Notes: generated from the sequence alone by a model not told the origin. A DNA stretch of 64,000 nt from an uncultured Anaerolineaceae bacterium (GCA_964354345.1 CAYGZL010000116.1:214-64213); one strand, 5' to 3'; positions 48,154 through 64,000 are shown, counted from the stretch's first letter. Numbers and translations: made by a program.

Positions 48154-48840
48154 ATGAATATGATTGAACAAGCTGATCAACGGTTGCGTTCTTGGGTTGA
48201 AACAGTTCTGGGTTCAGTGACAGTTTCATTCGATCCGCCAAGCAACAAACCAGGGGGAGAAGGCGTCAGCTTATATTTATTTGAATTACTATCTACACCC
48301 CCTCCCAGCTCTACTAAATTATCTCCCTTACAATTTACCGTTCGATATTTAGTGACTACCTGGGCCGACACCCCAGAAAAGGCCCACCAATTGTTAAGCG
48401 AGTTGGTCCTGGCCGCGTTAGGAACTCCTGATCTGGAAGTGGAGATCGCGCCTTTCCCATCTGAAAGCTGGCTGGCAATCGGCGCCCAACCAAGGCCATC
48501 CTTCTATATAAAAACTATTGTTCGCCAGGAGCGGGTTGAACCCCTCACCCATCTGGTTGAGCAACCCCTGATCGTCGAAACTGCCCAAATTACGAGCCTG
48601 GTCGGTGAATTGTGTACCCCTGATAATATCCCGATTATGGGAGGCTACGTTGAGCTAATTGATCTCGGTTTATCTGCTTATACAGATCGTAAGGGACGTT
48701 TTCGTTTTCCCACCATCCCCTCCGGCTTGCCGCTCAAGCTGCAAGTGAAAGCACGTGGCAAGACACTGAATGTTTTGGTCAAGCGTCTGGCTACTGACAC
48801 TGATCCAATCGTAATCCAAATCGACCCGCTTAAACCTTAA
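48154..48840 (+). CDS. Pvc16/Afp16 (DUF4255)-like cap/terminator with C-terminal carboxypeptidase-regulatory-like beta-sandwich
   Basis: VSFDPP, VSLYLF, YLVTTW and W.AIG..PRPS pattern; C-terminal TDRKGRFRF prealbumin-like motif; first gene of the CIS locus. Confidence 0.72.
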   Translation: MNMIEQADQRLRSWVETVLGSVTVSFDPPSNKPGGEGVSLYLFELLSTPPPSSTKLSPLQFTVRYLVTTWADTPEKAHQLLSELVLAALGTPDLEVEIAPFPSESWLAIGAQPRPSFYIKTIVRQERVEPLTHLVEQPLIVETAQITSLVGELCTPDNIPIMGGYVELIDLGLSAYTDRKGRFRFPTIPSGLPLKLQVKARGKTLNVLVKRLATDTDPIVIQIDPLKP

Positions 48841-48964: not shown

Positions 48965-50155
48965 ATGGAATATCGAGCACCAGATATCTATGTCGAAGAA
49001 GTGCCAGGTGGTCCACGTCCGATTCAGGCGGTAGGCACCAGCACAGCGGGCTTCGTCGGCGTCGCTCCCGATCCGAAAGCGCCGACCGATCAAGTCAAGG
49101 CTATCAATAACTGGACCCAATTTGTAAACAATTTTGCGTCCGGGCAAGCTATTAAATCGACTCCGTTAGCCCAGGCGGTGTTCGGTTTCTTCCAGAATGG
49201 CGGCACACGCTGTTATGTTGTGGCCGTTGGGGATGGCAAGCCGATTACCGGAAAAGGCGGGAAACGCTCTGGCCTGGATTTACTCGAAGCGTATGATGAA
49301 ATAGCTATCGTAGCTGCGCCTGGTAAAAATGACCAGGCCTCACAGGAAGCCCTGCTGACGCACTGCGAATCGTTGAAAGATCGCGTGGCCATCCTGGACA
49401 GCCCGGAGAAGGTGGAAGATTTACAGAAGCTGGTCACCGTAGCGGATAGCGGCGGCCCTGCTCCGACACCTGCGACTCCCAGTGGAGGTGTTCGCCCGCG
49501 TGATTCCAAAGGCGGTTATGGAACCTTCTATTATCCATGGATTATCATCCGCGATCCGATCACCGGAGACCAGGTCAGCGCCCCACCTTCCGGACACCTG
49601 GCTGGAATTTGGGCTCGCTCAGACTCCACACGCGGAGTTCATAAGGCTCCAGCAAATGAACCGGTGCGCGGCGCCCTGGGTGTGACCCACGCCCTCACAC
49701 GCCAGGAACAGGCTGAATTGAACCCGGCCGGTGTGAACGTGATTCGCTTCTTCCCCCGCCAGGGTGTCCTGGTATGGGGCGCGCGCACACTTGAAAAAGA
49801 CGAGTTTCGCTACCTGAATGTGCGTCGTTTGTTTAACATGGTAGAAGAGTCGATCGCCACCAGCACCCGTTGGATCGTCTTCGAGCCAAATGACCGCACT
49901 CTGTGGAAATCAATCCGGCGTGATATCACGGCCTTCCTGACCGGATTATGGCGGGATGGAGCCTTAATGGGGCGCACGCCACAGGAAGCTTTCTTCGTCA
50001 AGTGTGACGAGGAGACAAACCCACCAGAGAGCATCAATGAGGGCAAAGTCATCACCCTGATCGGGATTGCCCCAGTCAAACCAGCCGAATTTATTATCTT
50101 CCGCATCAGCCAGTTTGAGGGCGGCGTGGAAGTCCAAACCGAGGGAGGTAGCTAA
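48965..50155 (+). CDS. Contractile tail sheath protein
   Basis: YRAPDIYVEEV, TSTAGFVG, FFQNGG, YYPW, PPSGHLAG, GVHKAPANE, VWGARTL, YLNVRRLF, FEPND, AFFVKCD, APVKPAEF. Confidence 0.97.
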   Translation: MEYRAPDIYVEEVPGGPRPIQAVGTSTAGFVGVAPDPKAPTDQVKAINNWTQFVNNFASGQAIKSTPLAQAVFGFFQNGGTRCYVVAVGDGKPITGKGGKRSGLDLLEAYDEIAIVAAPGKNDQASQEALLTHCESLKDRVAILDSPEKVEDLQKLVTVADSGGPAPTPATPSGGVRPRDSKGGYGTFYYPWIIIRDPITGDQVSAPPSGHLAGIWARSDSTRGVHKAPANEPVRGALGVTHALTRQEQAELNPAGVNVIRFFPRQGVLVWGARTLEKDEFRYLNVRRLFNMVEESIATSTRWIVFEPNDRTLWKSIRRDITAFLTGLWRDGALMGRTPQEAFFVKCDEETNPPESINEGKVITLIGIAPVKPAEFIIFRISQFEGGVEVQTEGGS

Positions 50156-50610
50156 TGCCTGAGGAAACTGGAGCCCAACCGGGTACGTTCGTTGAACCGT
50201 ACCGCGTCTATAACTTCAAGCTGGTGATCAACGGGATCACCGAAGGGCACTTTACCGAATGCAGCGGGTTAGCTGCGCGCGTCCAGACAATCCGTTACCG
50301 TGAAGCCGGTCAGACACAGCTTGTGCGTACCATGCCTGGCCCAGTTGAATATGCCGATGTTACCTTGCGCTATGGATTGACCACTACCCATGAACTGTGG
50401 GATTGGTTTTTGAAATCGGTGGAGGGTAAAGCGGAAAGGAAAAATGTCTCGATTGTAATGCTGGATAGCACTGGAACGACCGAGGTCATGCGCTGGAACC
50501 TGATTGATGCCTGGCCAGCGGAATGGCGGGGAGCGCTGTTAGACGCGCTCGCTGGCGAGGCTGCGATCGAGTCGGTGCGCCTGGTTTACGACCGCCTGGA
50601 GCGGGAATAA
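50155..50610 (+). CDS. Tail tube protein (T4 gp19-like)
   Basis: YNFKL, FTECSGL, YRE, PG, VTLRYG, LWDW, RKNVSI, RWNLIDAWP, AIES; start overlaps the sheath stop. Confidence 0.95.
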   Translation: MPEETGAQPGTFVEPYRVYNFKLVINGITEGHFTECSGLAARVQTIRYREAGQTQLVRTMPGPVEYADVTLRYGLTTTHELWDWFLKSVEGKAERKNVSIVMLDSTGTTEVMRWNLIDAWPAEWRGALLDALAGEAAIESVRLVYDRLERE

Positions 50611-50669: not shown

Positions 50670-52262
50670 GTGGATATGGATCGAGTCGGCTGGCGCGCGC
50701 GTTTTCTGCTGAAGCTTGGCGCAGGATTGCAACGCCTGGGTTTAGCTTTAACCGCGCGCGCCTCCCGTATACAGCCACCACCAACAGCCGGGGCTAGTTC
50801 CGGCAAAGGTAACACCCACCCTCCTGAAGACAAGTCAGGGAAGACAGATGGTCCACCAGCACATTGGTTGGCACGTCTGAAACAAGCCAACGTGCCTCTC
50901 CAATGGATCGAACGCACATCGAGACCGGCGCGAACCGACCGGTCAGTTGGGCAAGCCCGGTATGGTAGAGAAAACCTGAACCCATCGTTGTCTGCCAGTG
51001 AGTCAGGCCCGCAGCAACCACCAGCCTATCGAGTCGCTCCAACGGTGCGTTCCACCGTGCAGCCTGCGGGATCTCCACCAGCCAGATCGACCGAGCCGCC
51101 ACCCATGCAATCAAGTGCGCCAAAAATACGTCGCGCCAGCCCTGACTGGCAACCAGTGCGTTTGACACCCCGCAAACGATCCTCAACTGGCTCTGCCAAT
51201 CAGGCTCCAGGCGCTTCGCCCCTGCCTGATCGAACAGACTACGGAGTTGTACAACCGGCTAATTTTTCCCCCCGACTACCTGCCGGGGCGAAGTCATCAG
51301 AACCGCGGTTTACGATGAAACAATCCTCGGAACCACCCGAGGCTGCTCCATTATCCAATCCGTCTGGCAGAAAACGGCGGCTGGCGACCAAATTGCATCA
51401 GTTCTGGCGGAACTTCCGTAAAACTCATTCTTACGCCAGCACCCACTGGTCAGCCAAGGCAGCAATCTCACCCACCAGGTTGCCTACCCTTTCACGAGCA
51501 GAGGAACATACTATTCCAGCAAGCTCTGCGCGACGACCGCAGCCAGAGCCAACACCGGTAGTAATCAGGCATAAGCATTCTGAAATAGATGTGGGATTAA
51601 CGCCACAGATAGGGGAGAACCATCCTGTAGTAGCTCAACATCTCGCCCAACCGGTGCGGGAGAATCCTCCCGTAGTAGCTGATGGTTTCGATGCACAGTT
51701 GCGAGAGAACTCACATGGATTAACTGAGGGGCTTATCCCACAGGCGCCGGTTATAACTCCGAAACCAGGCAGCCACCCAGGCTGGCCATCCCCGACAAGC
51801 AATGTAAATCGCTCTCCGAACCTGACTCTGCCTGAGCGGCCGAGTCGTCCTGTGGAACAGCCACCGATGGAGACAGGCAGCTCTCAACCGCTTGAACCGG
51901 TTCTGCCCGAGTTCTCTCCCTCCCCTCCGCGTTCCGCCCAAATAACCGTACCGGATTGGCCAGGTCAGCCAAAATCAAGTGAGGCGACTGTCGCTCCTCA
52001 TCCAGATTGGTCGCCCAATCACTCAATGCGACCCAAGCTCATGCCATCCGACCAACCAACGCATGCGAGCCAATTGCCAATCACACCCGAACCCGCGCAA
52101 TCCTTCTCACCAGAGGGACCATGCGACGCCTGGCCGGAACTGTTAGAGACATCCGTTGGATCAGAGCTAACTGAAACATGGTCTGAACCTTTTAATGAAC
52201 GACGCAAACAACACCTGGTGCAGGAACAGCAAGGTCGAAGACCAGAAGAGGTGGAGGGTTAG
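50670..52262 (+). CDS. Pro/Ser-rich, probably disordered CIS-associated protein
   Basis: Fills the gap between tube and tube initiator in the same orientation; PPAHWL near the N-terminus and WPEL near the C-terminus; start codon uncertain. Confidence 0.6.
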   Translation: MDMDRVGWRARFLLKLGAGLQRLGLALTARASRIQPPPTAGASSGKGNTHPPEDKSGKTDGPPAHWLARLKQANVPLQWIERTSRPARTDRSVGQARYGRENLNPSLSASESGPQQPPAYRVAPTVRSTVQPAGSPPARSTEPPPMQSSAPKIRRASPDWQPVRLTPRKRSSTGSANQAPGASPLPDRTDYGVVQPANFSPRLPAGAKSSEPRFTMKQSSEPPEAAPLSNPSGRKRRLATKLHQFWRNFRKTHSYASTHWSAKAAISPTRLPTLSRAEEHTIPASSARRPQPEPTPVVIRHKHSEIDVGLTPQIGENHPVVAQHLAQPVRENPPVVADGFDAQLRENSHGLTEGLIPQAPVITPKPGSHPGWPSPTSNVNRSPNLTLPERPSRPVEQPPMETGSSQPLEPVLPEFSPSPPRSAQITVPDWPGQPKSSEATVAPHPDWSPNHSMRPKLMPSDQPTHASQLPITPEPAQSFSPEGPCDAWPELLETSVGSELTETWSEPFNERRKQHLVQEQQGRRPEEVEG

Positions 52263-52267
52263 AAAAT

Positions 52268-53041
52268 ATGGAACGTGTAGCTTTCTTGATCGAAGAAACA
52301 GGTGAAAGAATTGGTTGTATGCTCAATCCTGAAGGGCTGGTCGTCCGCCGGGTAGCCGGTGTGCGTAGAGCAATTTCTATTAACGGGCAGTTAAGCGGGA
52401 GCGGGATGAATGATGATCCATTGTTATACACCGGCGGTGGATATACCGAGGTACAACTCGATTTGCTGTTCGATGTAACCCTGGCTGGTTCCTCGATTCA
52501 AACCGAAGATGTGCGAGACCTGACTGGTCCTCTCTGGCGTCTGGCAGAAAATGCACGGAAAGATTCGGGGTACGGTCGCCCGCCACTGGCACGCTTTGTC
52601 TGGGGGAAGGCATGGAATGTGTTGGGTATTGTCACCTCCGTAGCTGAACGGTTTGATCGCTTCACTTCATCTGGAGAACCCCAACGTTCCTGGTTAAGGA
52701 TGCGCTTTGTACGAGTCGATGAACCAGAAACAGATCTCACTGAAGAGGCTGCCATGCGGGGGGAGTCCTCTCGATCCTCCAAGGCATTGGCGACGGCGCT
52801 TGAATCGCTCCCAGAGGAGGTTCCGCTGGAAGAGGCGGAAAATCCCGAGGTCGACGCTCACGAACTTCATGGAGACGGCATCCAGGGGGAAAATTTACCA
52901 GAATTATCCTACCGGTACTATGGCGATCCAACTTTATGGCGTTGGCTGGCCTGGTTTAACCGGGTTATCCATCCCTTGAAGATGGCAATCGGGAGTGTGT
53001 TGCGCATTCCGCCATTACAATTGCTAAGAAAAAGGCTATGA
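52268..53041 (+). CDS. CIS tube-initiator (Afp7-like) with LysM-like C-terminal domain
   Basis: LNPE, LDLLFD, PPLARFVWG, FTSSGEPQR; C-terminal LSYRYYGDPTLWRWLAWFN...GSVLRIP. Confidence 0.85.
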   Translation: MERVAFLIEETGERIGCMLNPEGLVVRRVAGVRRAISINGQLSGSGMNDDPLLYTGGGYTEVQLDLLFDVTLAGSSIQTEDVRDLTGPLWRLAENARKDSGYGRPPLARFVWGKAWNVLGIVTSVAERFDRFTSSGEPQRSWLRMRFVRVDEPETDLTEEAAMRGESSRSSKALATALESLPEEVPLEEAENPEVDAHELHGDGIQGENLPELSYRYYGDPTLWRWLAWFNRVIHPLKMAIGSVLRIPPLQLLRKRL

Positions 53042-54570
53042 CTCCTGTAAATACCCTGCCACAACTATCTCTTGAATTAAACGATTTGCCAGTCCCGGTG
53101 AATTTCTACCGCCCCTTAACCGGTGTCTATGTCCGGCAGGCATTAAACGCGCCGGCACAATGTGAACTGGTTTTCAGTGATCCACCCGGTTCCTCCGAAG
53201 AAATGGATCAGATTGCTCAACAACTCAGTCCCGGGACACATTTTCGCCTTAAGCTGGTGGGTATTGATATCCCCCTTTTCATCGGCCAGGTGACAGGCAA
53301 CGAGTATACCTATCGCCCGGACTCCACTCGAGAAATACGCATCCGTGCTTACGATTTGCTCCACAGCCTGCGCAAACGCCAACAAGTTCGCGCTCACGTT
53401 CAGGTGACACCAGTCGAGTTGGCCACTGAAATGGTGAGTACACTTGGGTTAAGCGTCCAGGCAGCGCTAAAAGGGCCTTTATATCCGCGGGTGATCCAAC
53501 ATGCGCAATCCGACTATGACTTGTTATGCGAATTGCTGGATCGCTGTGGCTTATATTTCACTCTCCGCGATGATGTATTACACCTGTTGACCCTGGAAGG
53601 TTTAGACGACCAGGTTGATTTACGCCTGGGTGAAACGCTTCTGGAAGCGCGCCTGGAAATTAACACCGAAACTGCCAGCAGTTCAATCCGTGCCCAAGGT
53701 TGGGATCCTTTAGGCGTTGAACCATTCGAAGGTCAGAAAAATCAACCCCGCTCCGGTCGGAGTGTGGAAGCGGCGGTTGATGCACAATCAGTTGGCGGCG
53801 ATGGTGAACGCTGGCTGGTCGGGGAGGATGCGGTTAATTTCGATCATATCGAAGCCCTGGCCCAGGCAGAATTAGATCGTCGTGCGGGAAACGAGGTGAC
53901 CATGTGGGGGGTCGCCCAAGGTAACCCGTCTCTTCGACCTGGGACGCGGATCGAAATCGCAGGGGTAAATCAATCCTTCTCAGGCAAGTATGTTTTGACC
54001 AAGGTCACCCATACTATTGACACGCGATCCGGCTATATCACCCAGATTTCCAGCCAACCACCAGGCGGCCTCCGCCATTCCCAAAGCGCGATTGCAGCAT
54101 TGGGAGTGGTAACTCGAGTGGATGATCCTGAAAAATTCGGCCGGGTAAAAGCCTCATTGCCGGCCTATAACAACGTGGAAACCGAATGGATGCAGGTCAT
54201 TCACCCGGCAGCCGGAGTCAACAAAGGTCTGGTGGCACTGCCAGGGGTGGAGGATACCATATTGATTTTATTCACCCATGCGGATCCAGCGCGCGGCGTG
54301 GTGTTAGGTGGTTTTTACGGACCATTTGCTCCTTATGATCCGGGAGTGGACGGGAATGCTGTCAAACGATACTCGCTGCGCACCCCTCAGGGGCATCTGA
54401 TCCGCCTGGATGACGAGAAGCAAGTACTGCGCTTTGAACACAGTCGCGGAAGCTATGTCGAGATGACGCCCGATAAGGTCACCGTTTATGCGGCTGCCGA
54501 TCTTGAAATCAGCGCCCCTGGAAAACAGATCGTCATCCAGGGTGCAGCTATTGACTTTCGTAAGGCTTAA
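53038..54570 (+). CDS. VgrG-like spike (gp27 hub plus gp5/gpV OB-fold, Afp8-like)
   Basis: QSDYDLL, GNPSLRPG, SGKYVLTKVTH, GVVTRVDDPEKFGRVK, LPGVED, VVLGGFY, GHLIRLDD. Confidence 0.92.
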   Translation: MTPVNTLPQLSLELNDLPVPVNFYRPLTGVYVRQALNAPAQCELVFSDPPGSSEEMDQIAQQLSPGTHFRLKLVGIDIPLFIGQVTGNEYTYRPDSTREIRIRAYDLLHSLRKRQQVRAHVQVTPVELATEMVSTLGLSVQAALKGPLYPRVIQHAQSDYDLLCELLDRCGLYFTLRDDVLHLLTLEGLDDQVDLRLGETLLEARLEINTETASSSIRAQGWDPLGVEPFEGQKNQPRSGRSVEAAVDAQSVGGDGERWLVGEDAVNFDHIEALAQAELDRRAGNEVTMWGVAQGNPSLRPGTRIEIAGVNQSFSGKYVLTKVTHTIDTRSGYITQISSQPPGGLRHSQSAIAALGVVTRVDDPEKFGRVKASLPAYNNVETEWMQVIHPAAGVNKGLVALPGVEDTILILFTHADPARGVVLGGFYGPFAPYDPGVDGNAVKRYSLRTPQGHLIRLDDEKQVLRFEHSRGSYVEMTPDKVTVYAAADLEISAPGKQIVIQGAAIDFRKA

Positions 54571-54573
54571 AAG

Positions 54574-54909
54574 ATGAAGTGGCTCACCGAGGATGCCAGG
54601 CTCGTTTGTGCTCACCGGGGAGTGGTACAAAACCACCCAACCCAAAATCTGGTGACAATAGAAGGCCGGCGGGTGTTGGTGGACAACAATCCTGAAGGAC
54701 GAACCATTGGTGGTTGTCCGCAACCCGTGCCAGCCAGTAAGCCCTGTACTTTAACCTATAAAGTGGTTGAGGGTTATTCCGAGCTGCTCCGCATCGACAG
54801 CCAACGAGTGTGTCTGGATACGGTGCGGGGGAAGACTGATGGCCTACCCGCCGGCGCATTCGATTATTATGTCGACCAGCCAGGACAGGGTTTGGTGGAG
54901 GAATCATGA
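54574..54909 (+). CDS. PAAR-like/DUF4280 spike tip protein
   Basis: 111 aa after the spike gene; LVCAHRG, GCP, KPC and IDSQRVCL Cys/His pattern. Confidence 0.72.
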   Translation: MKWLTEDARLVCAHRGVVQNHPTQNLVTIEGRRVLVDNNPEGRTIGGCPQPVPASKPCTLTYKVVEGYSELLRIDSQRVCLDTVRGKTDGLPAGAFDYYVDQPGQGLVEES

Positions 54910-55337
54910 AAAATCCACGCTACCGCGCCTGGAAGTTTATCCATCCAGATCTGGATATCAGCCAGGGACAACCCGGGTTGAGTCTCTCACCACTCGGTGG
55001 GATCGCGATGGTGGAAGAGGCTGAGTCTGTGAGACAAGCTATCTTTCTCCTGCTTTCTACGCGTCCTGGGGAACGGGTGATGCGGCCAACTTATGGTTGT
55101 GAACTTTACAGCTTAATCTTCTCGCCCAACGATGATACCACCGCCGGTCTGGCGATTCATTTCGTCCGGCGCGCCCTGGAGCGCTGGGAACCGCGCATCC
55201 AAATCCTGCGCCTGGATGCAGAACAGAATCCAGAGAATCCAGAGTTATTAGATATCTTCCTGGAATACCGGCTGCGCGCCACGCAGCGCCAGGAACAAAT
55301 TCAATTCTCATTCCGCTTGAGCGGAGGGAGGTCGTGA
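54906..55337 (+). CDS. gp25/GpW baseplate sheath initiator (Afp9-like)
   Basis: SVRQAI, LSTRPGERVMRPTYGC, ALERWEPRI. Confidence 0.95.
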   Translation: MKNPRYRAWKFIHPDLDISQGQPGLSLSPLGGIAMVEEAESVRQAIFLLLSTRPGERVMRPTYGCELYSLIFSPNDDTTAGLAIHFVRRALERWEPRIQILRLDAEQNPENPELLDIFLEYRLRATQRQEQIQFSFRLSGGRS

Positions 55338-57946
55338 TGGCGGCTAACGATTTTAAGTCTCCCAGGCTGGACGACCGAACCTTCGACCAGTTACTGGCAG
55401 ATGCCCGGCGTATTATCCAGGAAAAAGGAACGAATTGGAACGATCTGTCCGCCAACGATCCAGGTATCGTGCTGTTGGAATTGTTCGCTTACCTGACCGA
55501 AGTAATGCTCTACCGGCTAAACCGGCTACCCGAAAAGGCCTATGTGGAATTCTTGCGTCTACTTGGGGTTACCATCCAACCCTCCTCAGCAGCCGCAGCC
55601 AACCTGACCTTTTACGTTGATCAGCCAGCAGCTAAAATAATCGAAATTCCTCTCGGAACGCGGGTCACTGTCGAACGCAGCGGTGGGGGCGGCCAGGAAC
55701 CACCTGTATTCGTCACGCTGCAGGATGGTGTTATTAAAGCTGGTCAGACGGATGTGACCTTGCTGGCGCGTAACTGTGATCAGGTAGATGGGGAGCTGGT
55801 TAAAAAAGGCACCGGGCAACCTGGTCAGGTGGTGCGCGTAATGCGCCCCCCGATTATTGCCGATACTGGTGATCGGACAGACCTGATCGTTACAACGGAA
55901 GCGCATGTCGATGAACTGAATGAACGGATTGAAGCGCGTGAATATCTCGGTAAAACATATCGGGTCTGGCGCCGGGTTGAAAATTTCACCAGCCTGGGCG
56001 ATGACCGTTTTACCTACATGGTCGATCGTAATAGTGGCCTGATCCAGTTTGCCCCTGCCGTAGACCTGGGAGAAGGGGCACAGCTATTGGCTGAAGCGCC
56101 TGGTCTGGATCGCGAGATTCGCGTTTGGTATCGCCGGGGGGGAGGTTCGCAAGGGAACCTGGCTGAAAATACACTTACGGTGATGAAAGATCCGATCAAA
56201 GGAGTCAAAGTCACCAATCACCAGCGCGCCACGGGAGGCAAAGCCGCTGAAACCCTGGAAAATGCACTGCTGCGGGGACCGCTCGAGTTACATTCACTCC
56301 AACGTGCCGTGACTGCTAAAGATTTCGAGCTTATTGCTCGCAAATTCAGTTCACGCGCGGTTGTACGCGCCAAAGCCTTTACCCGGCGGGATTTGTGGAA
56401 ACACGCCCAACCTGGGCAGGTCGAAGTCATGTTGGTGCCAGATATTCCTGTGGAAGAGCGAAATAACGTTACCATCGAATTGCTAACCGCCCACCAGAAC
56501 GAAGCCGTCCGTACGCAAATCCAGAAAGCGCTGGACGAGCGACGTCCCCTCGGCACCACCTGTCAGGTCAGTTGGACACGCTACAAACCGATGAAAGTCC
56601 GCACGCGGATTGTCGTACAGCGTGAAGAAGATAAAGACGCTATTCAACGACGCATCACCCAACGTCTTAACCAGACAATCACACCCATTCCGACAGATTT
56701 CAACTCGACTGGTTGGCCCTTCGGTCAGGCTTTACGCGCCTCGAATGTCTATGATATCGCTCTTGCTGAACCTGGTGTTCGTTGGGTTGATACCGTCCGG
56801 TTGGTGGTTGAGGAAGCTCCCAACAAGGATGTTGGAGTGATCGCAATTGACCATAGCCAACCGAAAACCTGGTATGCGAGCAGTGGGTCCGTCTTATTCC
56901 GCTCGCTCAACCACGGTGACGGTTGGGAAGCCATCCAAAAGTTCCCTGGAAAAATTCTATCCATCCAATCCCACCCTCAGGTGCCGGGCTTACTTGCTTT
57001 GGCGTGTCAACAAGCTGATGGTACAGGAACTGGCTTATTTTTCTCGGCAGATTGCGGCGAAACCTGGCCAACGAATCCTGATTTCGCTCCCGAGTTCACT
57101 ATCTGCGGGACCGCCTGGACTATGCGCGAAGGTGTGCCAATCCTTCACCTGGCGACCGATGTTGGATTGTATGAAGTTGCCCGTCAACCGGGTGCCACAC
57201 CCATTCCAATCCGGTTGAATACCGACACCGATGTTCCCAAGAGTTTTTATGCGGTAACTTCCTTTACTGACATTCAGGGCATTGTCTATGTCGCCCTGGC
57301 CGCGCAAGGTCAGAAAGGCGTTTATCTGTCTCGGCGAGGTGGATTGCGCGACTCCTTTAGCCGTTTGAAAACCGGCGCATTGCCTGCCAATGAGGATATT
57401 CGCGTTCTGGGCGTGCAAGCCATCGGATCACAATCCTTCCTATGGGCTGGCTCAACCGTGACGGACAGTGGCGTAGGAAATGGCGGCTATCGCTGGCAAC
57501 TGCGCGGGATGGAAGATCCTCCGGAAGGATGGATATCCTTCAAGACGGGTTGGCAGGCGGGTAGTTGTAAAGGATTGGCGTTTCATGGCGTTGAAGTTTT
57601 CGCCGCCTCGCATCGCCTGGGTGTGCTGCGCATCGCCGATGGCACCGTAGCCGGGGGACAGTGGGAAGCGCCCCAGATTACCTGTGGTCTACCCCTGCGG
57701 GAGACAACCACCCAAAAGCTCTTCCATCCGGTAGACACTGTTGCAGCGACTGCTGATCCTGAAAGATTGCTGGTGTTGGCTGGTGGTATTGAAGGCGTGT
57801 ATTCAACGGACGATGAAGGGAAGAGTTGGAGCGAATCCTCTCAAACAGAATTCATTGAGAAAGTCACGTTGCCCGAGACCAGCCTGTTCGTCTCCAAGGA
57901 TCATGAGGTGACCATCGTCAGGGAGGGCGAAGATGAAACAGGCTGA
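55334..57946 (+). CDS. Baseplate J/gp6-like wedge (Afp11-like) fused to a C-terminal Asp-box beta-propeller
   Basis: PRLDDRTFDQL, DPGIVLLELFAY, YRLNRLP, GTGQPGQ, YRRGGGSQGN, ATGG, RAVTAKDFE, GWPFG; after about aa 495 the motifs SLNHGDGW, SADCGETW and STDDEGKSW. Confidence 0.9.
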   Translation: MMAANDFKSPRLDDRTFDQLLADARRIIQEKGTNWNDLSANDPGIVLLELFAYLTEVMLYRLNRLPEKAYVEFLRLLGVTIQPSSAAAANLTFYVDQPAAKIIEIPLGTRVTVERSGGGGQEPPVFVTLQDGVIKAGQTDVTLLARNCDQVDGELVKKGTGQPGQVVRVMRPPIIADTGDRTDLIVTTEAHVDELNERIEAREYLGKTYRVWRRVENFTSLGDDRFTYMVDRNSGLIQFAPAVDLGEGAQLLAEAPGLDREIRVWYRRGGGSQGNLAENTLTVMKDPIKGVKVTNHQRATGGKAAETLENALLRGPLELHSLQRAVTAKDFELIARKFSSRAVVRAKAFTRRDLWKHAQPGQVEVMLVPDIPVEERNNVTIELLTAHQNEAVRTQIQKALDERRPLGTTCQVSWTRYKPMKVRTRIVVQREEDKDAIQRRITQRLNQTITPIPTDFNSTGWPFGQALRASNVYDIALAEPGVRWVDTVRLVVEEAPNKDVGVIAIDHSQPKTWYASSGSVLFRSLNHGDGWEAIQKFPGKILSIQSHPQVPGLLALACQQADGTGTGLFFSADCGETWPTNPDFAPEFTICGTAWTMREGVPILHLATDVGLYEVARQPGATPIPIRLNTDTDVPKSFYAVTSFTDIQGIVYVALAAQGQKGVYLSRRGGLRDSFSRLKTGALPANEDIRVLGVQAIGSQSFLWAGSTVTDSGVGNGGYRWQLRGMEDPPEGWISFKTGWQAGSCKGLAFHGVEVFAASHRLGVLRIADGTVAGGQWEAPQITCGLPLRETTTQKLFHPVDTVAATADPERLLVLAGGIEGVYSTDDEGKSWSESSQTEFIEKVTLPETSLFVSKDHEVTIVREGEDETG

Positions 57947-58499
57947 GATCGCACTCTTGTTGCCAGAAATATTTCAGCGAACAGTCGCGGGGACTCGCGA
58001 TGGGAAAGCTTCACCGATTGATTTCCTGTTGGCAGTCATGGATGCGCTACACGCACCCAGTGAAGCAATCCTGGAAAACCTGGATCGATACTTCAATCCA
58101 TATCAGGCGGATGATAATTTTGTCCCATTTTTGGCGACATGGGTCGATCTGACAGAACTACTCCGCGAGACGCCTGCCGTATTTCAGGGACAGGCAGACC
58201 AGGGCATGTGCTCAGCACCCCTGGCGACTGGCATGGGGCGGCTGCGCGAATTGGTCGCGGCCGCGGCATATCTATCCCAATGGCGAGGCACCGAGAAGGG
58301 TTTACGCCGGTTTCTTGAAACCGCCACCGGTGTAAGCGGTTTCATAATAAAGGAGCAAATTATCGAGAATGGCCAGGAAAAACCTTACCACTTACAAATC
58401 GAAGCTCCCAAGAGCACGGAGCAATTTCGCCCCCTGCTCGAGAAGATCATTGATTTAGAAAAACCCGCCTATGTTACCTACCAGTTGGAATTTGTTTGA
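57933..58499 (+). CDS. Phage tail protein I/gp7-like baseplate component (Afp12 position)
   Basis: LLPEIFQ, LDRYFNP, FVPFLATWV, WRGTEKGLRRFLETATG, IIDLEKPAYV. Confidence 0.85.
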   Translation: MKQAEIALLLPEIFQRTVAGTRDGKASPIDFLLAVMDALHAPSEAILENLDRYFNPYQADDNFVPFLATWVDLTELLRETPAVFQGQADQGMCSAPLATGMGRLRELVAAAAYLSQWRGTEKGLRRFLETATGVSGFIIKEQIIENGQEKPYHLQIEAPKSTEQFRPLLEKIIDLEKPAYVTYQLEFV

Positions 58500-58558: not shown

Positions 58559-58852
58559 ATGGACACCATCCACAGTATCATTAACATCCTGGGATTCATT
58601 TGCGGCCTGGGGGCTGGTATTTTACTGATTGTCCTGGGTATAATTAACAAAAGCGCTGCCGCAATCGCGTTTGGCGTCTGGGCATTAATCAGCGTACCCC
58701 TGGCCTGGTTTAGCGGAGCCAAGGCCGAGCCAAGCGAAAATCCATTCAAGTTGAAATTAGGCGCCAAGTTCAAATATGTACCGGATTTCGTCTGGGTGAT
58801 CATTGCTTTGTTATTCGTTGGTGCGGTGGTTATCGCGATCGTACTGCGGTAA
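58559..58852 (+). CDS. Small membrane protein (about 3 TMs), unknown function
   Basis: AAGGAG RBS; three hydrophobic segments; first gene after the baseplate genes. Confidence 0.7.
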   Translation: MDTIHSIINILGFICGLGAGILLIVLGIINKSAAAIAFGVWALISVPLAWFSGAKAEPSENPFKLKLGAKFKYVPDFVWVIIALLFVGAVVIAIVLR

Positions 58853-58915: not shown

Positions 58916-60238
58916 ATGACCAGCCAATTTAACCTCACCGTCGAAAGCAACACCGTCGCGATCAACTCGCAAGGGTCAGGGAAAATCACCTTTACCGCTT
59001 TCAATGCCAGTGGGAGAACTGCGCGCGGGCGCGCGAATATGCAGACAGTTCCTGAAGGACAGCCCCACCTGGCCTGGTTAACCATCTCCGGCGATGCCGA
59101 AAGAGAGTTTCCCATCGCCGGAGTGGACCAGTTCCTTGTCCAGGTTAATGCACCAAAAAATGCTGCGGTAGGGCAGTATACCTTCCGTTTGAACCTGGTG
59201 GAGGTCGCCAATCCAGATGAGACTTTTTCGGAGGGACCAACCGTCAGCTTCAAGATTAGTGAACGGAAAAGGGATTTGAGTCTCTTTCCCTGGTGGATCC
59301 TGCTGGCATTATTGGCAGGGATTATCTTAATCGCGGGGATCATCTACCTGGCCACGCGCCCGCGTACGGTTGAGGTGCCAAACGTAATAGGTTTACAGGT
59401 GGACGATGCCCTATCAACACTTGAAGCCGGCTCCTTACGTCCCCGGCAGGGCGCTGAGGAATTCAGCGCCAATGTTTCGAAGGGCGCCGTGGCGCGCACC
59501 GATCCTCAGGCCAAGACGAAAGTAGACAAGGGCAGCCGCGTCGAGTGGTATCCTTCTCTTGGCGCACAACCTACTCCTACCCCAACCGCCACTCCAATGC
59601 GCCTCACAGCCACCCCTACCGCTACTCCTACACCCAACCTGCTCGCCAGTTGGACAATTTATGAGGATCGGATAGCAGCCATACGCCACCCCAAGGATTG
59701 GTTGCCGATGCCATGCCCGATGTGTGTCGGTTTCAACGACAGTGGTTCATCGTTGTTGGCTGTGGTTTCAAACAAGGATCTGTACGGCAGCCTGGAATAT
59801 TATTTCCACGGGGTTCTACCGGAGAAAGTCAATTATCAAGCAGGTGCATTTTTCATGGCTTTTGTTTTCCAGGACAACACACTGGGATTTTCATCGGCCT
59901 TTCCGACTGACTGGTTAAAGATGTTTTTAATGAATTCCCCCAGCGGTTATTTCCCCTGGCATTTCTTTATATTTGGTCCCGATGGATACGGATCTTTCGA
60001 TAATTATGTCAAGATCCAGGAAGAAAGGTCGTTAAACCTGAGCGGTTACACGGCAGCCCAGTGGCTTCTGGAAGGCGAGGATCGCCTGTCTGGTCAGACT
60101 CTTCTGATTCAGGTGACAGCGATTGTCTTTGGCTCGCGTAGTGAACGCGCCTACCTGATTGCGGCTGCTCCAGGCGATATATTCGAGAAATACCAAAGTA
60201 CATTTACCTTGCTGGTCGAGAACTTTAAGTTGAAATAG
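58916..60238 (+). CDS. Bitopic protein 1: Ig-like N-domain, TM, PASTA, Thr-Pro linker, PsbP/DcrB-like C-domain
   Basis: FPWW plus hydrophobic helix; PASTA pattern VPNVIGLQVDDALSTLE...GAVARTDPQA.TKVDKGSRV; PTPTPTATP; C-domain begins WTIYE...IRHPKDW and ends FTLLVENFKL. Confidence 0.8.
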   Translation: MTSQFNLTVESNTVAINSQGSGKITFTAFNASGRTARGRANMQTVPEGQPHLAWLTISGDAEREFPIAGVDQFLVQVNAPKNAAVGQYTFRLNLVEVANPDETFSEGPTVSFKISERKRDLSLFPWWILLALLAGIILIAGIIYLATRPRTVEVPNVIGLQVDDALSTLEAGSLRPRQGAEEFSANVSKGAVARTDPQAKTKVDKGSRVEWYPSLGAQPTPTPTATPMRLTATPTATPTPNLLASWTIYEDRIAAIRHPKDWLPMPCPMCVGFNDSGSSLLAVVSNKDLYGSLEYYFHGVLPEKVNYQAGAFFMAFVFQDNTLGFSSAFPTDWLKMFLMNSPSGYFPWHFFIFGPDGYGSFDNYVKIQEERSLNLSGYTAAQWLLEGEDRLSGQTLLIQVTAIVFGSRSERAYLIAAAPGDIFEKYQSTFTLLVENFKLK

Positions 60239-60307
60239 AGACTACAACCAGTGTCCTTTACCGGAAATGATGTAAAATAAGAACAAATCAAAAAACAGGA
60301 GGGCGCC

Positions 60308-61720
60308 ATGGCCGGAACCTTCATTATTACACCGCTGGCAAACCAGGCAATCCTTGCCAAGGGTGAGGGAAGCGCGTCTTTTACCGTTACGAATAATAGC
60401 GGTCGAGCGTTGCGTGGCCGGGCGTTGTTAGAGACTGTACCGGCTGAACAGTCTCACAAGGATTGGCTGAAGCTGGATCGGGAGGCCGAACAGGAGTACG
60501 ACATCGCTGCAGCAGCGCAAATTAACGTGGCGATTAAAGCCCCTGCTGGAACTCCGCCAGGCAAATATACTTTCCGCCTGAATATACTGGATGTCAGCAA
60601 TCCAGACGAGGGTTTATCCGAGGGTCCGACGGTCACAATCATCGTCCCGAAAGAAGGAGATGGAGGCCATTTCCCCTGGTGGATCATCCTGGTTGTCCTG
60701 GCTGTGCTGGCTTTGATCGGCGGATTAATTTATTCCTTAACCCGTCCAAAAGGATCCATTGTGCCAGCGTTGATTGGGAAGCCGGTGGAGACGGCCTTAG
60801 CAATGCTAGACAAAGCTGGCCTGCAAGTTACCCCGCTGTATGCGGATAATCCGGAGACGAAGGGGAATGTGTTCGCCTCCACTCCGCAAGGCGGAGATGG
60901 CGTGGTGAAGAACGCGCCTGTGATCTTGTTCATCTCCAATGGACCGACGGCAACCTTCACAGTGACCCCGCAGTTCACCCCCACGCCAACCTTCACCCCT
61001 TCCATCACCCCCTCGCCGACTCCTCACACCGGAATCTTCCAGGCTAACCAGGACCGGTTTTGGTGGTCAGAAGCATGCCCGCAAAATTGCCCCGATTTCG
61101 CTAAAGGTGATATGCTGACCATCTACCGGTACAGCGAGTTTGAAATAGCTCCGAAAAATAAAATCAACTTACCCGAATTTATTCAGCCTAATCTTGAAGT
61201 GATTCCTACTGCCACGAATACACCCTCCTCGGGTATGGTACTTATCAAACCGGATATATCTATCCTTAAACCTTTAGTTCCTGCGGATACAATCACAAAA
61301 GCCACACTTATCAGCCCTTTTAGAAGAACGACGACCTGGTCAACGGCTACGGTTCTTTTCGATTTGACGCAAATTCCACGCCGGGCTAACATCGTGTCAG
61401 CCATGCTAACTTTATCTGTAGTTGATTCAGATGGCGCAGATCCGAATATATCTGTTATGTTGGCAAGCGCGCCATGGTCCGAGTCGAGCAATGATGCCCC
61501 GCCGTGCAATCAAACTGGAAAAGTCCTTATTAAAGTAACTTCCAGCGGCACCCAGAATTGGGATATCAGTAATTTACTGGCCAGCCAGATTGCTGGGTCT
61601 GGACAAATTAACGGCTTCTGTTTGACCATGGAAACCAGTGGTTCGACACGTAGTTTTGCCAGCCGGAACAATTCCAACACAAAGCTACGACCAACATTGA
61701 CTGTGATCTATTATCCGTAA
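60308..61720 (+). CDS. Bitopic protein 2: Ig-like N-domain, TM, PASTA, Thr-Pro linker, DNRLRE/CBM96-like C-domain
   Basis: FPWW-TM; VPALIGKPVETALAMLDKAGL...GNVFASTP...VILFISNG; C-domain FDLTQIP...IVSAMLTL...WDIS...FASR...RPTLTVIY. Confidence 0.8.
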   Translation: MAGTFIITPLANQAILAKGEGSASFTVTNNSGRALRGRALLETVPAEQSHKDWLKLDREAEQEYDIAAAAQINVAIKAPAGTPPGKYTFRLNILDVSNPDEGLSEGPTVTIIVPKEGDGGHFPWWIILVVLAVLALIGGLIYSLTRPKGSIVPALIGKPVETALAMLDKAGLQVTPLYADNPETKGNVFASTPQGGDGVVKNAPVILFISNGPTATFTVTPQFTPTPTFTPSITPSPTPHTGIFQANQDRFWWSEACPQNCPDFAKGDMLTIYRYSEFEIAPKNKINLPEFIQPNLEVIPTATNTPSSGMVLIKPDISILKPLVPADTITKATLISPFRRTTTWSTATVLFDLTQIPRRANIVSAMLTLSVVDSDGADPNISVMLASAPWSESSNDAPPCNQTGKVLIKVTSSGTQNWDISNLLASQIAGSGQINGFCLTMETSGSTRSFASRNNSNTKLRPTLTVIYYP

Positions 61721-61760
61721 GTCGAAACTTACTGTTCCCCGATGAAGGAAGGAGAACGTC

Positions 61761-62942
61761 ATGGCAGATATTTTCACCATCACACCATTGTCGAACCAGG
61801 TAACCCTGAACGCCAACCGCCAGGCAACCGTCGTGTTTACTGTCACCAATAACAGTGGTCGGATGGTGCATGGCCTGGCCTCGCTGGCGACTGATCCGGA
61901 AAAACAACCCCATGCAGCCTGGCTAACGATCGAGGGTGAGGCTGAACAAGAATACCCTATTGCCGGCCTCATCCAAATCAAGGTGAATATCACCGTTCCT
62001 GCAGAAACCAGCCCAGGCACGTATAACTTCCGGCTTAACATGGTGGATGTCAGCAATACGGATGAAACCTTTTGCCAGGGGCAAACAGTAACGATCGTCG
62101 TCCGTGAGGTTATCATCATACCCTGGTGGAAAAAGTTCTACCCCTGGTGGATCATCGTTGCAGCAGTGATCGCTCTGGTGTTAATTATCCTGCTCGTGAT
62201 TTTATTAACCCGAAAAAAAGAGGTAACCATTCCACCTGTCGTGGGTACTCCCGTGGGAGTGGTACAAACCCGGTTGACTGAAATTGGCTTGACAAATTCA
62301 ACCACCAACAATAATCACACCGAGGCCAGCGGTATTGTCTATGATTCGAATCCAACCTCCGGCACGAAGGTTCCCAGTGGATCGAATGTTGAATTATTCG
62401 TCTCCAAAGGACCAGGCCAGGTTACGGTAAGGTTTAAAGCCGTCCAGGACAAATTCTGGTACCCGCCTTATGTATTATGTATTTTCGGTTCATGTCCTGA
62501 CTTTAACTATGGTCCGGATTTGCAACTCTTTAGGAGCGCGACAGGAACTGGAGGCTCTGGGTTAGTTGCTATTCAATTTATGTTAAATTCCATCCCAGCC
62601 GGAGCGACTATTCAATCAGCCTCACTACAATTATCTGTTACGGATTACAAGGGGATTAATCCAGGGGTTACCGTTTCACTGGCTTCTTCATACTGGTCTG
62701 AGGGGGGGGCGACGGCGCCAAATTGCTCAACCGTAAACCAGACCAGTATTTCAGTCGGCCCGGCAGGTGATTATGTTAAGTGGGATGTCACCGCACTGGT
62801 AAACTACAAATACCATAATCCCGCGGTAAATAACGGATTCTGCCTGACCATGAACTTCGGAGATTCTTTGAGATCTTTTGGCAGCCGGGAGAATCCCAAC
62901 CCCAGAGCCCAACCAGTACTGTCAGTTACCTATACTCCTTAG
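61761..62942 (+). CDS. Bitopic protein 3: Ig-like N-domain, TM, PASTA, DNRLRE/CBM96-like C-domain
   Basis: YPWW-TM; IPPVVGTPV...GIVYDSNPTSGTKVPSGSNVELFVSKG; C-domain IPAGATIQSASLQL...WDVTALV...FGSRE...PVLSVTY; AAGGAG RBS. Confidence 0.82.
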   Translation: MADIFTITPLSNQVTLNANRQATVVFTVTNNSGRMVHGLASLATDPEKQPHAAWLTIEGEAEQEYPIAGLIQIKVNITVPAETSPGTYNFRLNMVDVSNTDETFCQGQTVTIVVREVIIIPWWKKFYPWWIIVAAVIALVLIILLVILLTRKKEVTIPPVVGTPVGVVQTRLTEIGLTNSTTNNNHTEASGIVYDSNPTSGTKVPSGSNVELFVSKGPGQVTVRFKAVQDKFWYPPYVLCIFGSCPDFNYGPDLQLFRSATGTGGSGLVAIQFMLNSIPAGATIQSASLQLSVTDYKGINPGVTVSLASSYWSEGGATAPNCSTVNQTSISVGPAGDYVKWDVTALVNYKYHNPAVNNGFCLTMNFGDSLRSFGSRENPNPRAQPVLSVTYTP

Positions 62943-62953
62943 GATTGTTCTAG

Positions 62954-63499
62954 ATGAGTCTAAAAACACTAATTATTATCCTGGTTGTGCTGGGGTTGCT
63001 GTTTGCTGCCGCGGTTCTGGTTGGTGCATCGCGACAGGACGATCCCAATGCAAAGCCAACCAATAGCTGGCAGGGAAACCTGATCAAAAGCTTCGGTAAC
63101 CTGATCCCCAAGGGAAAAGTTGGCGCGGACGATGTACGCAGGGCGATTGATCCGAGTTGCTGGAGACCGCAGGAACAGAGAATGGTCATTCAAAGTGGGT
63201 TGGTCTGTCTGTATTATTTCAACCCATCCAAAATGCCACGCCTGCTGCGCCTGAGTCTGACAGAGGGAAATTCAGCTCAGCTATTACTCAGCCAGCCGGT
63301 AAACTCCGATGGTGATATGGTCACCGCCAAGCCAGTCCTCGACCAGGGGAACGAACCGCCAACGGTTGATCCTGTTATTAATGGGCAAACGATCCGCTTT
63401 AACCTGTACCGGCAACAGAAAGACACCGATACGGTCAAATTGGTTGTGCAATGTAATGCTGCGCCCGGAAAGAATTGTAGTTTAACCTTCAAAAAATAA
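62954..63499 (+). CDS. Membrane-anchored or secreted hypothetical protein with Cys pairs
   Basis: N-terminal hydrophobic helix; four Cys; starts 11 bp after the previous stop. Confidence 0.7.
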   Translation: MSLKTLIIILVVLGLLFAAAVLVGASRQDDPNAKPTNSWQGNLIKSFGNLIPKGKVGADDVRRAIDPSCWRPQEQRMVIQSGLVCLYYFNPSKMPRLLRLSLTEGNSAQLLLSQPVNSDGDMVTAKPVLDQGNEPPTVDPVINGQTIRFNLYRQQKDTDTVKLVVQCNAAPGKNCSLTFKK

Positions 63500-63531: not shown

Positions 63532-64000
63532 CTAGGTGCGTGTAAGCGCCTTGAGGATGGCCGGAATCGCGCCAATCAACAGGATTATCAGCCAGATTAC
63601 GCCCAGGATCGCCACCACAATGGCCGCGATGGCATCGGTAATGCTGACCAAAAAGATCGGCACGATGCCCCAAAGAAAGCTGATGATAATGTTCCCGAGA
63701 AATGAGCACAAGATCATCATAATCAAGGCTTTTCCCCGCAGGAAGTGTTGTTGCGCCAACAGGATGCAAACCACGATACCGATCTTCATCAACAACAGCA
63801 CGCTCAGGATGGCATTGCCACCGCCGCGGTTAAAGAAAGCAAACATGATAAAGTAAGCGATCGTGCCGAACGGAACAGCTAATAACAATCCGACCATCAG
63901 CAGTAACTTAACGATGGCCAGGATAATCATGAGGATCGCGGCGATGAGGAGCAGGATCGAGAATATGACTGTGACGCAGCCCTGTAACCGCCCGTGAATA
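63532..64000 (-). CDS. Polytopic membrane protein, 5' end beyond the window
   Basis: The frame stays open upstream of 63930 to the window edge (IHGRLQGCVTVIFSILLLIAAIL...); at least 5 hydrophobic helices; convergent with the CIS operon. Confidence 0.7.
   Translation of the reverse strand, partial: IHGRLQGCVTVIFSILLLIAAILMIILAIVKLLLMVGLLLAVPFGTIAYFIMFAFFNRGGGNAILSVLLLMKIGIVVCILLAQQHFLRGKALIMMILCSFLGNIIISFLWGIVPIFLVSITDAIAAIVVAILGVIWLIILLIGAIPAILKALTRT

Follow-up and report, generated by a model that had tools for sequence, protein, structure and literature searches.

Near the 3′ end of a 64,000-nucleotide stretch of DNA from an uncultured Anaerolineaceae bacterium (the window, below, means this whole stretch), three adjacent paralogous genes form the tail end of a same-strand contractile injection system (CIS) gene cluster, where they lie in the tail-fiber slot. 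We propose, with a probability of roughly two in three, that their products are bitopic membrane adaptors of the adjacent CIS, consisting of a cytoplasmic immunoglobulin (Ig)-like N-terminal domain that sits on the baseplate, a transmembrane (TM) helix, and a variable outer part that binds the envelope. The gene linkage, domain make-up, fold and homology of the paralogs are described below as they were observed, and it is from them that we infer the baseplate docking and the role as trigger or anchor. The initial annotation of this DNA, made from the sequence alone, had recognized the domain layout of the three proteins and was silent on their CIS baseplate context.

Over their first ~145 amino acids, the three paralogs (440, 470 and 393 residues long) have many invariant positions in common. 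When the whole assembly was searched in six frames with the N-terminal module (N-module) of paralog 2, the other two paralogs were retrieved with E values of 5.8e-36 and 4.7e-35, as was a fourth copy on a different contig of the same genome (E 1.3e-38). Each paralog continues with an (F/Y)PWW motif, which is followed by a single strongly hydrophobic helix and by one PASTA repeat (PF03793; 48.5, 34.9 and 32.7 bits in paralogs 1–3, against a Pfam gathering score of 23.2); an N-terminal hydrophobic segment is absent from all three. The C-terminal domains of paralogs 2 and 3 score 32.9 and 47.2 bits with CBM96 (PF24517, cut-off 26) and 49.9 and 72.2 bits with DNRLRE_dom (NCBIfam NF033679, cut-off 34), whereas paralog 1 gives no DNRLRE/CBM96 match above the curated cut-offs. 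Pfam offers nothing better than E 0.14 for its C-domain, which also lacks a significant match to a PDB sequence and any homologue but itself among proteins of 242–770 residues, and a single-sequence model of it reaches a mean predicted local distance difference test (pLDDT) score of 35. The initial annotation had described a shared N-domain of about 115 residues with FPWW, one TM helix and PASTA, the lack of a signal peptide, C-terminal divergence and Cys pairs in the C-domains. Our alignment displays the motifs that it quoted, the cysteines lie where it placed them, and the PASTA assignment, on which it had staked its interpretation, passes the hidden Markov model cut-offs in all three proteins; the PsbP/DcrB-like label that it gave to the C-domain of paralog 1 found no support.

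Considering (i) the number and position of the hydrophobic segments, (ii) the distribution of cysteines and (iii) the homology to proteins of known orientation, the paralogs are, by strong inference, bitopic with the N-terminus inside and the C-terminus outside. A 19-residue segment with a mean hydropathy of ~3 follows FPWW in all 125 aligned members of the family and constitutes the only TM helix, and no signal-like segment is present. Cysteine accounts for 0.07% of the residues before the helix and for 1.2% of those after it. Of 115 proteins, 80 have an even number of cysteines after the helix, 6 an odd number and 29 none, and even counts are the pattern expected of disulfide-bonded exported domains. 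The stretch comprising the TM helix and PASTA aligns to the same stretch of the Stk1/PknB kinases (NF033483) and should therefore have the same orientation. The strongest argument comes from the other CIS lineages described below, in which a homologous module lies between a Hanks kinase plus FHA domain and the TM helix. Because Hanks kinase and FHA domains work in the cytoplasm, the N-domain of the window paralogs is, judged from these sequence comparisons, most likely cytoplasmic too, as the initial annotation had supposed.

An AlphaFold2 model of residues 1–145 of paralog 2, computed from the 125-sequence alignment, has a mean pLDDT of 94.9 and displays nine strands in a β-sandwich (residues 5–113) and a helix (residues 125–144). 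The structural search against representatives returned Ig-like, PapD-like and MSP-like matches, and the N-domain is similar in both fold and profile to the Ig-like β-sandwich of FixG_C and NPCBM_assoc (NEW3), in agreement with the Ig-like nature proposed at the outset. Sequence searches of the PDB with two N-module profiles gave no significant match and no CIS chain, one of them returning a single GH61 protein at E 0.36 and the other six weak matches, the best at E 0.0068.

The paralogs follow gp25, Baseplate_J and Tail_P2_I on the same strand with 59–69 bp spacing (Table 1), and this arrangement is not peculiar to the window. The order VgrG, small Cys-bearing protein, gp25, Baseplate_J, P2_I and then one to five N-module genes recurs in six of seven loci from species-representative genomes, the seventh comprising 1.5 kb of upstream sequence only; these records are labeled Anaerolineae (two), Promineifilaceae, uncultured bacterium, Acidobacteriota and Blastocatellia. 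It is found again in three of three additional genomes from the window's phylum sample and in one additional genome of a second phylum, which was sampled around an Acidobacteriota-labeled metagenome-assembled genome (MAG). N-module genes, one to five in number, directly follow P2_I in 10 of the 11 CIS loci that other genomes contributed. In Deinococcus sp. AJ005, plasmid p96k carries the whole gene set in the same order, its N-module gene being annotated just as a 'PASTA domain-containing protein'. On this plasmid, a 305-residue multi-TM 'hypothetical protein' with an HEFVH motif (L098:16789-17706, + strand), which was not seen in the window and may be a membrane metalloprotease, is encoded between P2_I and the N-module gene. 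Where arrays were bounded on both sides (27 arrays), the N-module copy number was one in 8 loci, two in 14, three in 3 and five in 2.

A less biased sample is provided by 59 metagenome loci that were retrieved by a peptide pattern from the N-module alone. CIS-cluster genes are present in 40 of these, P2_I in 17 of the 18 loci with at least 2 kb of upstream sequence, and a CIS context in 14 of the 15 that reach 10 kb or more; among the 19 that lack CIS genes, 18 lie on contigs shorter than 4.2 kb. The distribution over genomes points in the same direction. Six of the 401 genomes in the sample of the window's phylum match the N-module profile at E ≤ 1e-5, four with strong full-length matches and two with short pieces (E ~5e-6). 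P2_I matches occur in 21 of the 401 genomes and reach E ≤ 6e-54 only in the same four that have a strong N-module, while the 17 genomes with only weak P2_I-like matches lack the N-module. Strong N-module and strong P2_I matches likewise fall in the same two of 351 genomes of the second phylum, so that, over the 752 genomes sampled from both phyla, the N-module and the short P2_I of this lineage are held by the same six. As two of these six were the search centers and three belong to one family, the independent co-occurrence events are few.

The family to which the three paralogs belong is large, and its constant part is the N-terminal one. Searched with a profile, 1.84 billion representatives yielded 3744 clusters (50% identity) at E ≤ 1e-3 and 696 at E ≤ 1e-30, both numbers being upper bounds for the N-module because two members had contributed their C-domain to the 276-position profile. 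Of the 150 listed relatives, which are 136 to 988 residues long, 144 match from profile position 4 or earlier, close to residue 1 or at it. Among the 135 of them that were scanned, 57 contain PASTA, 15 contain other families without PASTA and 63 match no Pfam family. The non-PASTA C-terminal parts include Laminin_G_3, DUF11, PD40, META, Thioredoxin, B_lectin, CarboxypepD_reg, HYDIN-Ig, EFTU_D2 and others, and single proteins carry CARDB, PG_binding_1, SBP_bac_1/5, Inhibitor_I42 or Ribosomal_L12_C beside PASTA, which itself is repeated one to five times per family member. PASTA is present in 38 of 56 (out of 63) complete open reading frames (ORFs) from the metagenome loci, along with CBM96, Laminin_G_3, F5/8 type C, Tectonin, PD40 and one GTP_EFTU, and 15 match no Pfam family. 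The 34 genome-locus proteins comprise, in numbers that were not counted, members with PASTA and members without a Pfam family, and display Laminin_G_3, DUF11, PG_binding_1 and PKD. The tandem copies of seven loci (the window and six others) share 40–84% identity in the N-domain and mostly 15–30% past residue 210, some pairs reaching 61%. The C-terminal domain shuffling anticipated in the initial annotation is thus real, and it is heavy across relatives, genome loci and metagenome loci alike. No toxin-like domain was found in the members scanned, and the N-module has no match in 50,697 phage records or, with two N-module patterns, in IMG/VR.

The Ig-like module also extends beyond this lineage. 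Other CIS lineages of the same phylum, by which we mean genomes with only weak P2_I-like matches, have related proteins at the equivalent position. At one locus (L101:11692-18301, + strand), a P2_I-like gene is followed by a gene for a DUF4159 protein and by four tandem genes for bitopic proteins with variable C-terminal parts, the first ~230 residues of which consist of two Ig-like repeats (FixG_C, 32.3 and 39.3 bits, cut-off 25.6). Two further loci (L099:12073-18516, + strand, and L100:6517-9780, − strand) encode at the same position proteins of ~1060–1090 residues, in which Pkinase (E 7e-51), FHA, two Ig-like modules, a TM helix (residues ~705–730) and an ectodomain follow one another. A profile comparison with hhalign of the window-type N-domain to the Ig-like module of these lineages gave a probability of 96.3% (E 1.9e-9, 90 columns), against 0.2% for DUF11 repeats as a control. 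The module therefore occurs alone (in this lineage, in Chloroflexota, Acidobacteriota and the Deinococcus plasmid), doubled (L101) and fused to Pkinase and FHA (L099, L100), which suggests one ancestral adaptor that gained or lost phospho-signaling. [quoted passage not shown] The picture drawn in the initial annotation, that of a kinase replaced by an Ig-like adaptor, came close: the Ig-like part and the kinase kinship stand, and the replacement gives way to relatives that hold kinase, FHA and Ig-like module together.

Within the cluster, the protein that attracts attention as a partner of the N-module is Baseplate_J. The only PDB sequence match of the window's Baseplate_J is 9gtp (E 1.9e-57), which we take to be the CisA paper's model of CIS-Sc, as 9GTP is named once there; the alignment to its Baseplate_J-like chain (652 residues) is limited to residues 209–490 of the window protein. 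The P2_I profile also has its best PDB match in 9gtp (E 3.5e-9). The last ~370 residues of the window's Baseplate_J (residues ~500–870) form a C-terminal extension with weak BNR/Sortilin/Ycf48-like matches and a partial F510_1955 glycosylhydrolase match. This extension accompanies the N-module lineage, and the other lineages of CIS sampled in this phylum have Baseplate_J ORFs of 678–699 residues. Across 22 loci, N-module distances correlate best with those of the Baseplate_J extension (r 0.83; P2_I 0.75; gp25 0.58); in 500 of 500 resamples the extension outperforms gp25, VgrG and the CIS_tube protein, and in 484 of 500 the Baseplate_J core, a hint that makes it a candidate docking surface of the N-module.

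We put forward the following model. The paralogs, occupying the slot that encodes tail fibers in extracellular CIS (eCIS), would be tail fibers turned inside out, with a constant end for the baseplate and an exchangeable end for sensing or anchoring. The constant Ig-like N-domain would dock in the cytoplasm to the periphery of the baseplate, most likely to the Baseplate_J extension and/or the P2_I wedge protein, and the FPWW-TM helix would cross the producer's own cytoplasmic membrane. The variable outer part would bind cell-wall or other envelope or surface glycans, by means of PASTA plus DNRLRE/CBM96 or an orphan domain in the window and of LamG, DUF11, PKD, PG_binding, F5/8-C, Tectonin or PD40 elsewhere. 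By means of these proteins, a cytoplasmic, CIS-Sc-like particle would be recruited to the membrane, and events in the envelope would be coupled to the site and time of firing. A bolder extension, to which we give less than even odds, is that inside-out tail fibers represent a general and undescribed class, a transmembrane receptor layer that informs the CIS on peptidoglycan fragments, glycans and neighbors and, by so doing, determines where and when to fire. CIS firing could then be re-aimed by ectodomain swaps, as phages swap their receptor-binding proteins.

Several observations weigh against this model. The positive-inside bias agrees in direction with the N-in/C-out topology but is weak, Lys plus Arg averaging 2.06 before and 1.75 after the TM helix, with more before it in 52 proteins, more after it in 26 and a tie in 40. 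The fold of the N-domain is a common one, and while the modeled structure is Ig-like, it is silent on function and on baseplates: no CIS, phage baseplate or fiber chain is among the 50 listed fold matches, which are cluster representatives. Every component of the cluster correlates with the N-module to some degree (r 0.58–0.83), as expected of a shared history, and the partner signal is to be read as a hint. A few members carry translation-type domains after the TM helix, a poor fit to a cell-wall-binding ectodomain. These are an EF-Tu-like GTP-binding domain with recognizable G motifs, encoded by a CIS-adjacent gene (L059:10001-11053, also L060; E 1.5e-36), and, in P0142 and P0082, EF-Tu domain 2 (EFTU_D2) or PASTA plus the ribosomal L7/L12 C-domain.

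The gene linkage has its exceptions as well. One metagenome locus of 20 kb (L040) is devoid of any CIS gene. The fourth copy of the window's own genome, which encodes PASTA and an unassigned C-domain, lies away from the CIS between PFOR/DHOD-like and V-type ATPase genes (L005:8989-10341, − strand), and in one other genome a third copy lies 2.9 Mb from the cluster. An orphan copy of genome G440 that is also far from the CIS cluster (L036:9074-10441, − strand) has TSP3 and two PG_binding_1 repeats. Genome G442 (that of L018; loci L023–L035) has 16 N-module matches spread over many contigs, several with PKD, none of them within 15 kb of P2_I; it nevertheless holds this CIS lineage, with a caspase-like large protein and other genes after its P2_I. 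This MAG is labeled 'uncultured Enterobacteriaceae', a label that looks doubtful. Since dispersed copies exist, adjacency to the CIS is not obligatory. Finally, CIS particles of related Chloroflexota and Deinococcota are reported to be unattached in the cytoplasm (PMC12998442). If such strains carry N-module genes, this would favor a transient contact of the CisA kind over a stable anchor of the T6SS kind, and any docking of particles may be transient.

The kinase- and FHA-bearing relatives invite a different explanation, according to which the paralogs are envelope sensors or regulators that were inherited with the CIS and never sit on the baseplate. They would signal or recruit a factor as the PpkA/TagE kinase and Fha1/TagH do in the T6SS, and the Ig-like module would be a signaling or oligomerization domain. 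PpkA and Fha1 are described as controlling T6SS assembly post-translationally (PMC13584744), CisA is reported as not found in purified CIS-Sc particles (PMC12237407), and the dispersed copies also suit such a role. We nonetheless consider it unlikely. The Pfam scan found neither Pkinase nor DUF6519 in the window paralogs, and their cytoplasmic side holds no kinase, FHA or other catalytic or signaling domain. It consists only of the 115-residue Ig-like domain, which makes direct protein contact the simplest output. The tail-fiber slot and the pattern of a constant N-terminal and a variable C-terminal part are the signature of baseplate-attached fibers, and N-module divergence best tracks a peripheral part of the baseplate.

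The same slot, together with the copy number of one to five and the glycan-binding C-domains (LamG, CBM96, F5/8-C, PKD), also resembles the catalog of eCIS fibers, in which 23.4% of loci have more than one fiber and the maximum is five (PMC12923769). The paralogs could accordingly be taken for true tail fibers of a released, extracellular CIS, whose helix is not a membrane anchor in the producer and whose C-domains bind receptors on target cells. This is very improbable, given that the 19-residue hydrophobic segment of all 125 members would insert into a membrane and that PASTA, the PG_binding domains and the even Cys counts speak for export in the producer. A polytopic membrane protein is conserved with the cluster in 11 of 11 loci, CIS-Sc, the nearest system to have been solved, is cytoplasmic, and the N-module has no match in the phage genomes and IMG/VR data searched. 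Recognition and immunity loci, too, typically show variable outer domains and multi-copy arrays, and the paralogs might then be cargo, immunity or self-recognition proteins, serving as surface markers for the CIS of neighbors or as a shield from self-firing. To this we attach hardly any credence: toxin-like domains are lacking from the scanned members, and both conservation and co-divergence with the baseplate fall on the cytoplasmic part, for which a surface marker would have no use.

The remaining genes of the cluster are listed in Table 1. Chloroflexota and Deinococcota CIS are grouped with the cytoplasmic Streptomyces CIS as subtype IId in a paper on Roseiflexus (PMC12998442). The polytopic protein encoded beyond the array, which we call multiTM250, belongs to no Pfam family; all 11 CIS loci of other genomes encode it (E 1e-42 to 1e-69), as does the Deinococcus plasmid. 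It gives this CIS lineage a second membrane component, better conserved than the paralogs, and its role may be comparable to that of the haloarchaeal anchor candidate Hbor_38620. TM181 is encoded by 7 of the 11 genome loci as well as by many metagenome loci and the Deinococcus locus, either between P2_I and the N-module genes or after them; its size and layout, compared by description only, recall the half of CisA that comprises the TM helix and the C-domain. The 530-residue ORF between the tube and CIS_tube genes contains 15.7% proline and has no family match and no detected homologue in the other loci, where its position is taken by a gap of 1–1.5 kb; it could be a tape-measure-like or cargo gene that evolves fast. 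PHROGs gave no match for the paralogs or the small TM proteins, promoter and terminator scans of the locus found no enrichment over shuffled sequences, and the upstream neighbors of the cluster, which are TPR/BTAD, NDK, radical-SAM and DUF2344 genes, are not kept beside the other loci.

Table 1 Features of the CIS cluster and the paralog array, in window coordinates
Feature	Position	Strand	Length	Remarks
Pvc16_N-like cap	48154-48840	+		
Sheath	48965-50155	+		
gp19 tube	50155-50610	+		
Pro-rich ORF	50670-52262	+	530 aa	between tube and CIS_tube genes
CIS_tube protein	52268-53041	+		
VgrG/gpD spike	53038-54570	+		
Cys-bearing protein	54574-54909	+	111 aa	PAAR position
gp25	54906-55337	+		
Baseplate_J / Cis11-like	55334-57946	+	870 aa	
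Baseplate_J C-terminal extension	56834-57946	+		
Tail_P2_I / Cis12-like baseplate wedge protein	57933-58499	+	188 aa	upstream of array
Small protein	58559-58852	+	97 aa	two hydrophobic segments; between P2_I and paralog 1; homologues in 3 other loci
Paralog 1	58916-60238	+	440 aa	C-domain orphan after Pro/Thr linker, one Cys pair (aa 267 and 270)
Paralog 1 Ig-like N-domain	58916-59269	+		aa 1-~118
Paralog 1 TM helix	59297-59353	+		aa 128-146
Paralog 1 PASTA	59369-59542	+		aa 152-209
Paralog 2	60308-61720	+	470 aa	four Cys
Paralog 2 Ig-like N-domain	60308-60661	+		aa 1-~118
Paralog 2 TM helix	60683-60739	+		aa 126-144
Paralog 2 PASTA	60758-60940	+		aa 151-211
Paralog 2 DNRLRE/CBM96 domain	61346-61705	+		aa 347-466
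Paralog 3	61761-62942	+	393 aa	
Paralog 3 Ig-like N-domain	61761-62114	+		aa 1-~118
Paralog 3 TM helix	62151-62207	+		aa 131-149
Paralog 3 PASTA	62223-62408	+		aa 155-216
Paralog 3 DNRLRE/CBM96 domain	62493-62930	+		aa 245-390
TM181	62954-63499	+	181 aa	N-terminal TM or signal anchor; four Cys
multiTM250	63532-64000	−	251 aa	polytopic, at least five hydrophobic segments; exceeds the window; full gene L037:1249-2004 (−)

Membrane adaptors encoded in the fiber slot of a CIS are a known kind of protein, of which CisA and Cis13 are examples. What was not found in the open-access literature is the domain family itself, with its Ig-like cytoplasmic module, its repertoire of PASTA and glycan-binding ectodomains, its occurrence in no fewer than three phyla and its kinase and FHA relatives. 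No open-access paper was found that joins a contractile injection system with a PASTA domain or with Deinococcus plus PASTA, none was found on Cis13-like TM proteins beyond cyanobacteria and haloarchaea, and a T6SS review is the only open-access text found that unites contractile injection, an FHA domain, a kinase and the term transmembrane. A grassland-soil preprint that mentions CIS, Chloroflexota and Acidobacteriota concerns the CIS of Haliangiales and not the N-module family. How cytoplasmic CIS reach the membrane and become triggered is answered by CisA for actinomycetes only, and the N-module family is a concrete candidate for other phyla. It ties CIS to PASTA-type sensing of the cell wall and, via its relatives, to Ser/Thr kinase and FHA signaling. 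The well-folded 115-residue domain suits binding and structural work, the large family offers a natural series of ectodomains, and plasmid p96k of Deinococcus sp. AJ005 provides a cultured carrier.

Several described systems resemble the paralogs in part. The eCIS fibers with eBAP1–5 (PMC12923769) share with them a conserved N-module, variable binding domains, multi-copy loci and an upstream Baseplate_J, gp25 or Tail_P2_I gene. The eBAP domains are presented there as ~50-residue helical bundles (eBAP1 and 2), ~200-residue 'shoulders' domains (eBAP3 and 4) and DUF6519 (eBAP5). That account, in the portions drawn on here, describes no TM helix and contains none of the words 'transmembrane', 'PASTA', 'Chloroflex' and 'Acidobacter'. 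Our proteins gave no DUF6519 match and no PDB sequence match to any CIS chain, a category that would include the crown protein of the thylakoid-anchored CIS that defines eBAP4; some overlap with eBAP1–3 is conceivable. Hbor_38620 of the haloarchaeal T6SS-like CIS, a putative anchor of the baseplate to the cytoplasmic membrane with six TM helices and a ~150-residue cytoplasmic domain (PMC11566945), is likewise a membrane protein that is conserved along with one clade of CIS; being polytopic, it is by description nearer in kind to multiTM250, if to anything, than to the bitopic paralogs. To the PknB/Stk1 kinases, the paralogs are related by the TM helix and first PASTA repeat, which align to positions 328–442 of the 563 in the NF033483 model (E 2.4e-13 to 1.7e-7), but they have no kinase domain and their scores of 30–50 bits are far under the family cut-off of 450. 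PpkA (TagE) and Fha1 (TagH), as portrayed for the T6SS (PMC13584744), offer a likeness by description, in that a membrane-spanning sensor sets the place and time at which a contractile machine is assembled or fired. The N-module relatives with the order Pkinase, FHA, Ig-like, TM and ectodomain come close to this design, whereas the window proteins are without kinase and FHA.

The nearest parallels are Cis13 and CisA. Cis13, a tail-fiber-like protein of the thylakoid-anchored Anabaena CIS, is reported to bind the baseplate with its N-domain and to span the membrane with residues 122–154; deletion of this helix frees the CIS from the membrane, and the helix is reported only from filamentous cyanobacteria (PMC8894136). 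The paralogs resemble it in architecture only, having the TM helix (residues ~125–145) at a nearly equal spacing and the gene after P2_I. Cis13 (PDB 7B5H) is not among the 50 listed fold matches of the N-domain, nor is any CIS chain among the matches of the PDB profile searches, and it anchors to thylakoids, whereas the window proteins have large ectodomains after the helix. CisA (SCO4242) of Streptomyces coelicolor is described as oriented with its N-terminus inside and its C-terminus outside, required for firing and contraction, and predicted to bind Cis11 (PMC12237407). Compared by description, CisA is a single gene with one conserved SBP-like C-domain and a largely disordered cytoplasmic part of ~285 residues, while here one to five genes combine a compact 115-residue Ig-like domain with shuffled ectodomains. 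The two share a slot directly after the baseplate genes, among which Cis11 is the Baseplate_J homologue, and the bitopic layout of CisA is the one predicted for the paralogs. The CIS lineage of CisA is the nearest to the window's by the 9gtp matches of Baseplate_J and P2_I, and the paralogs stand, as a CisA-type gene does, directly downstream of the baseplate genes of an IId-like CIS cluster.

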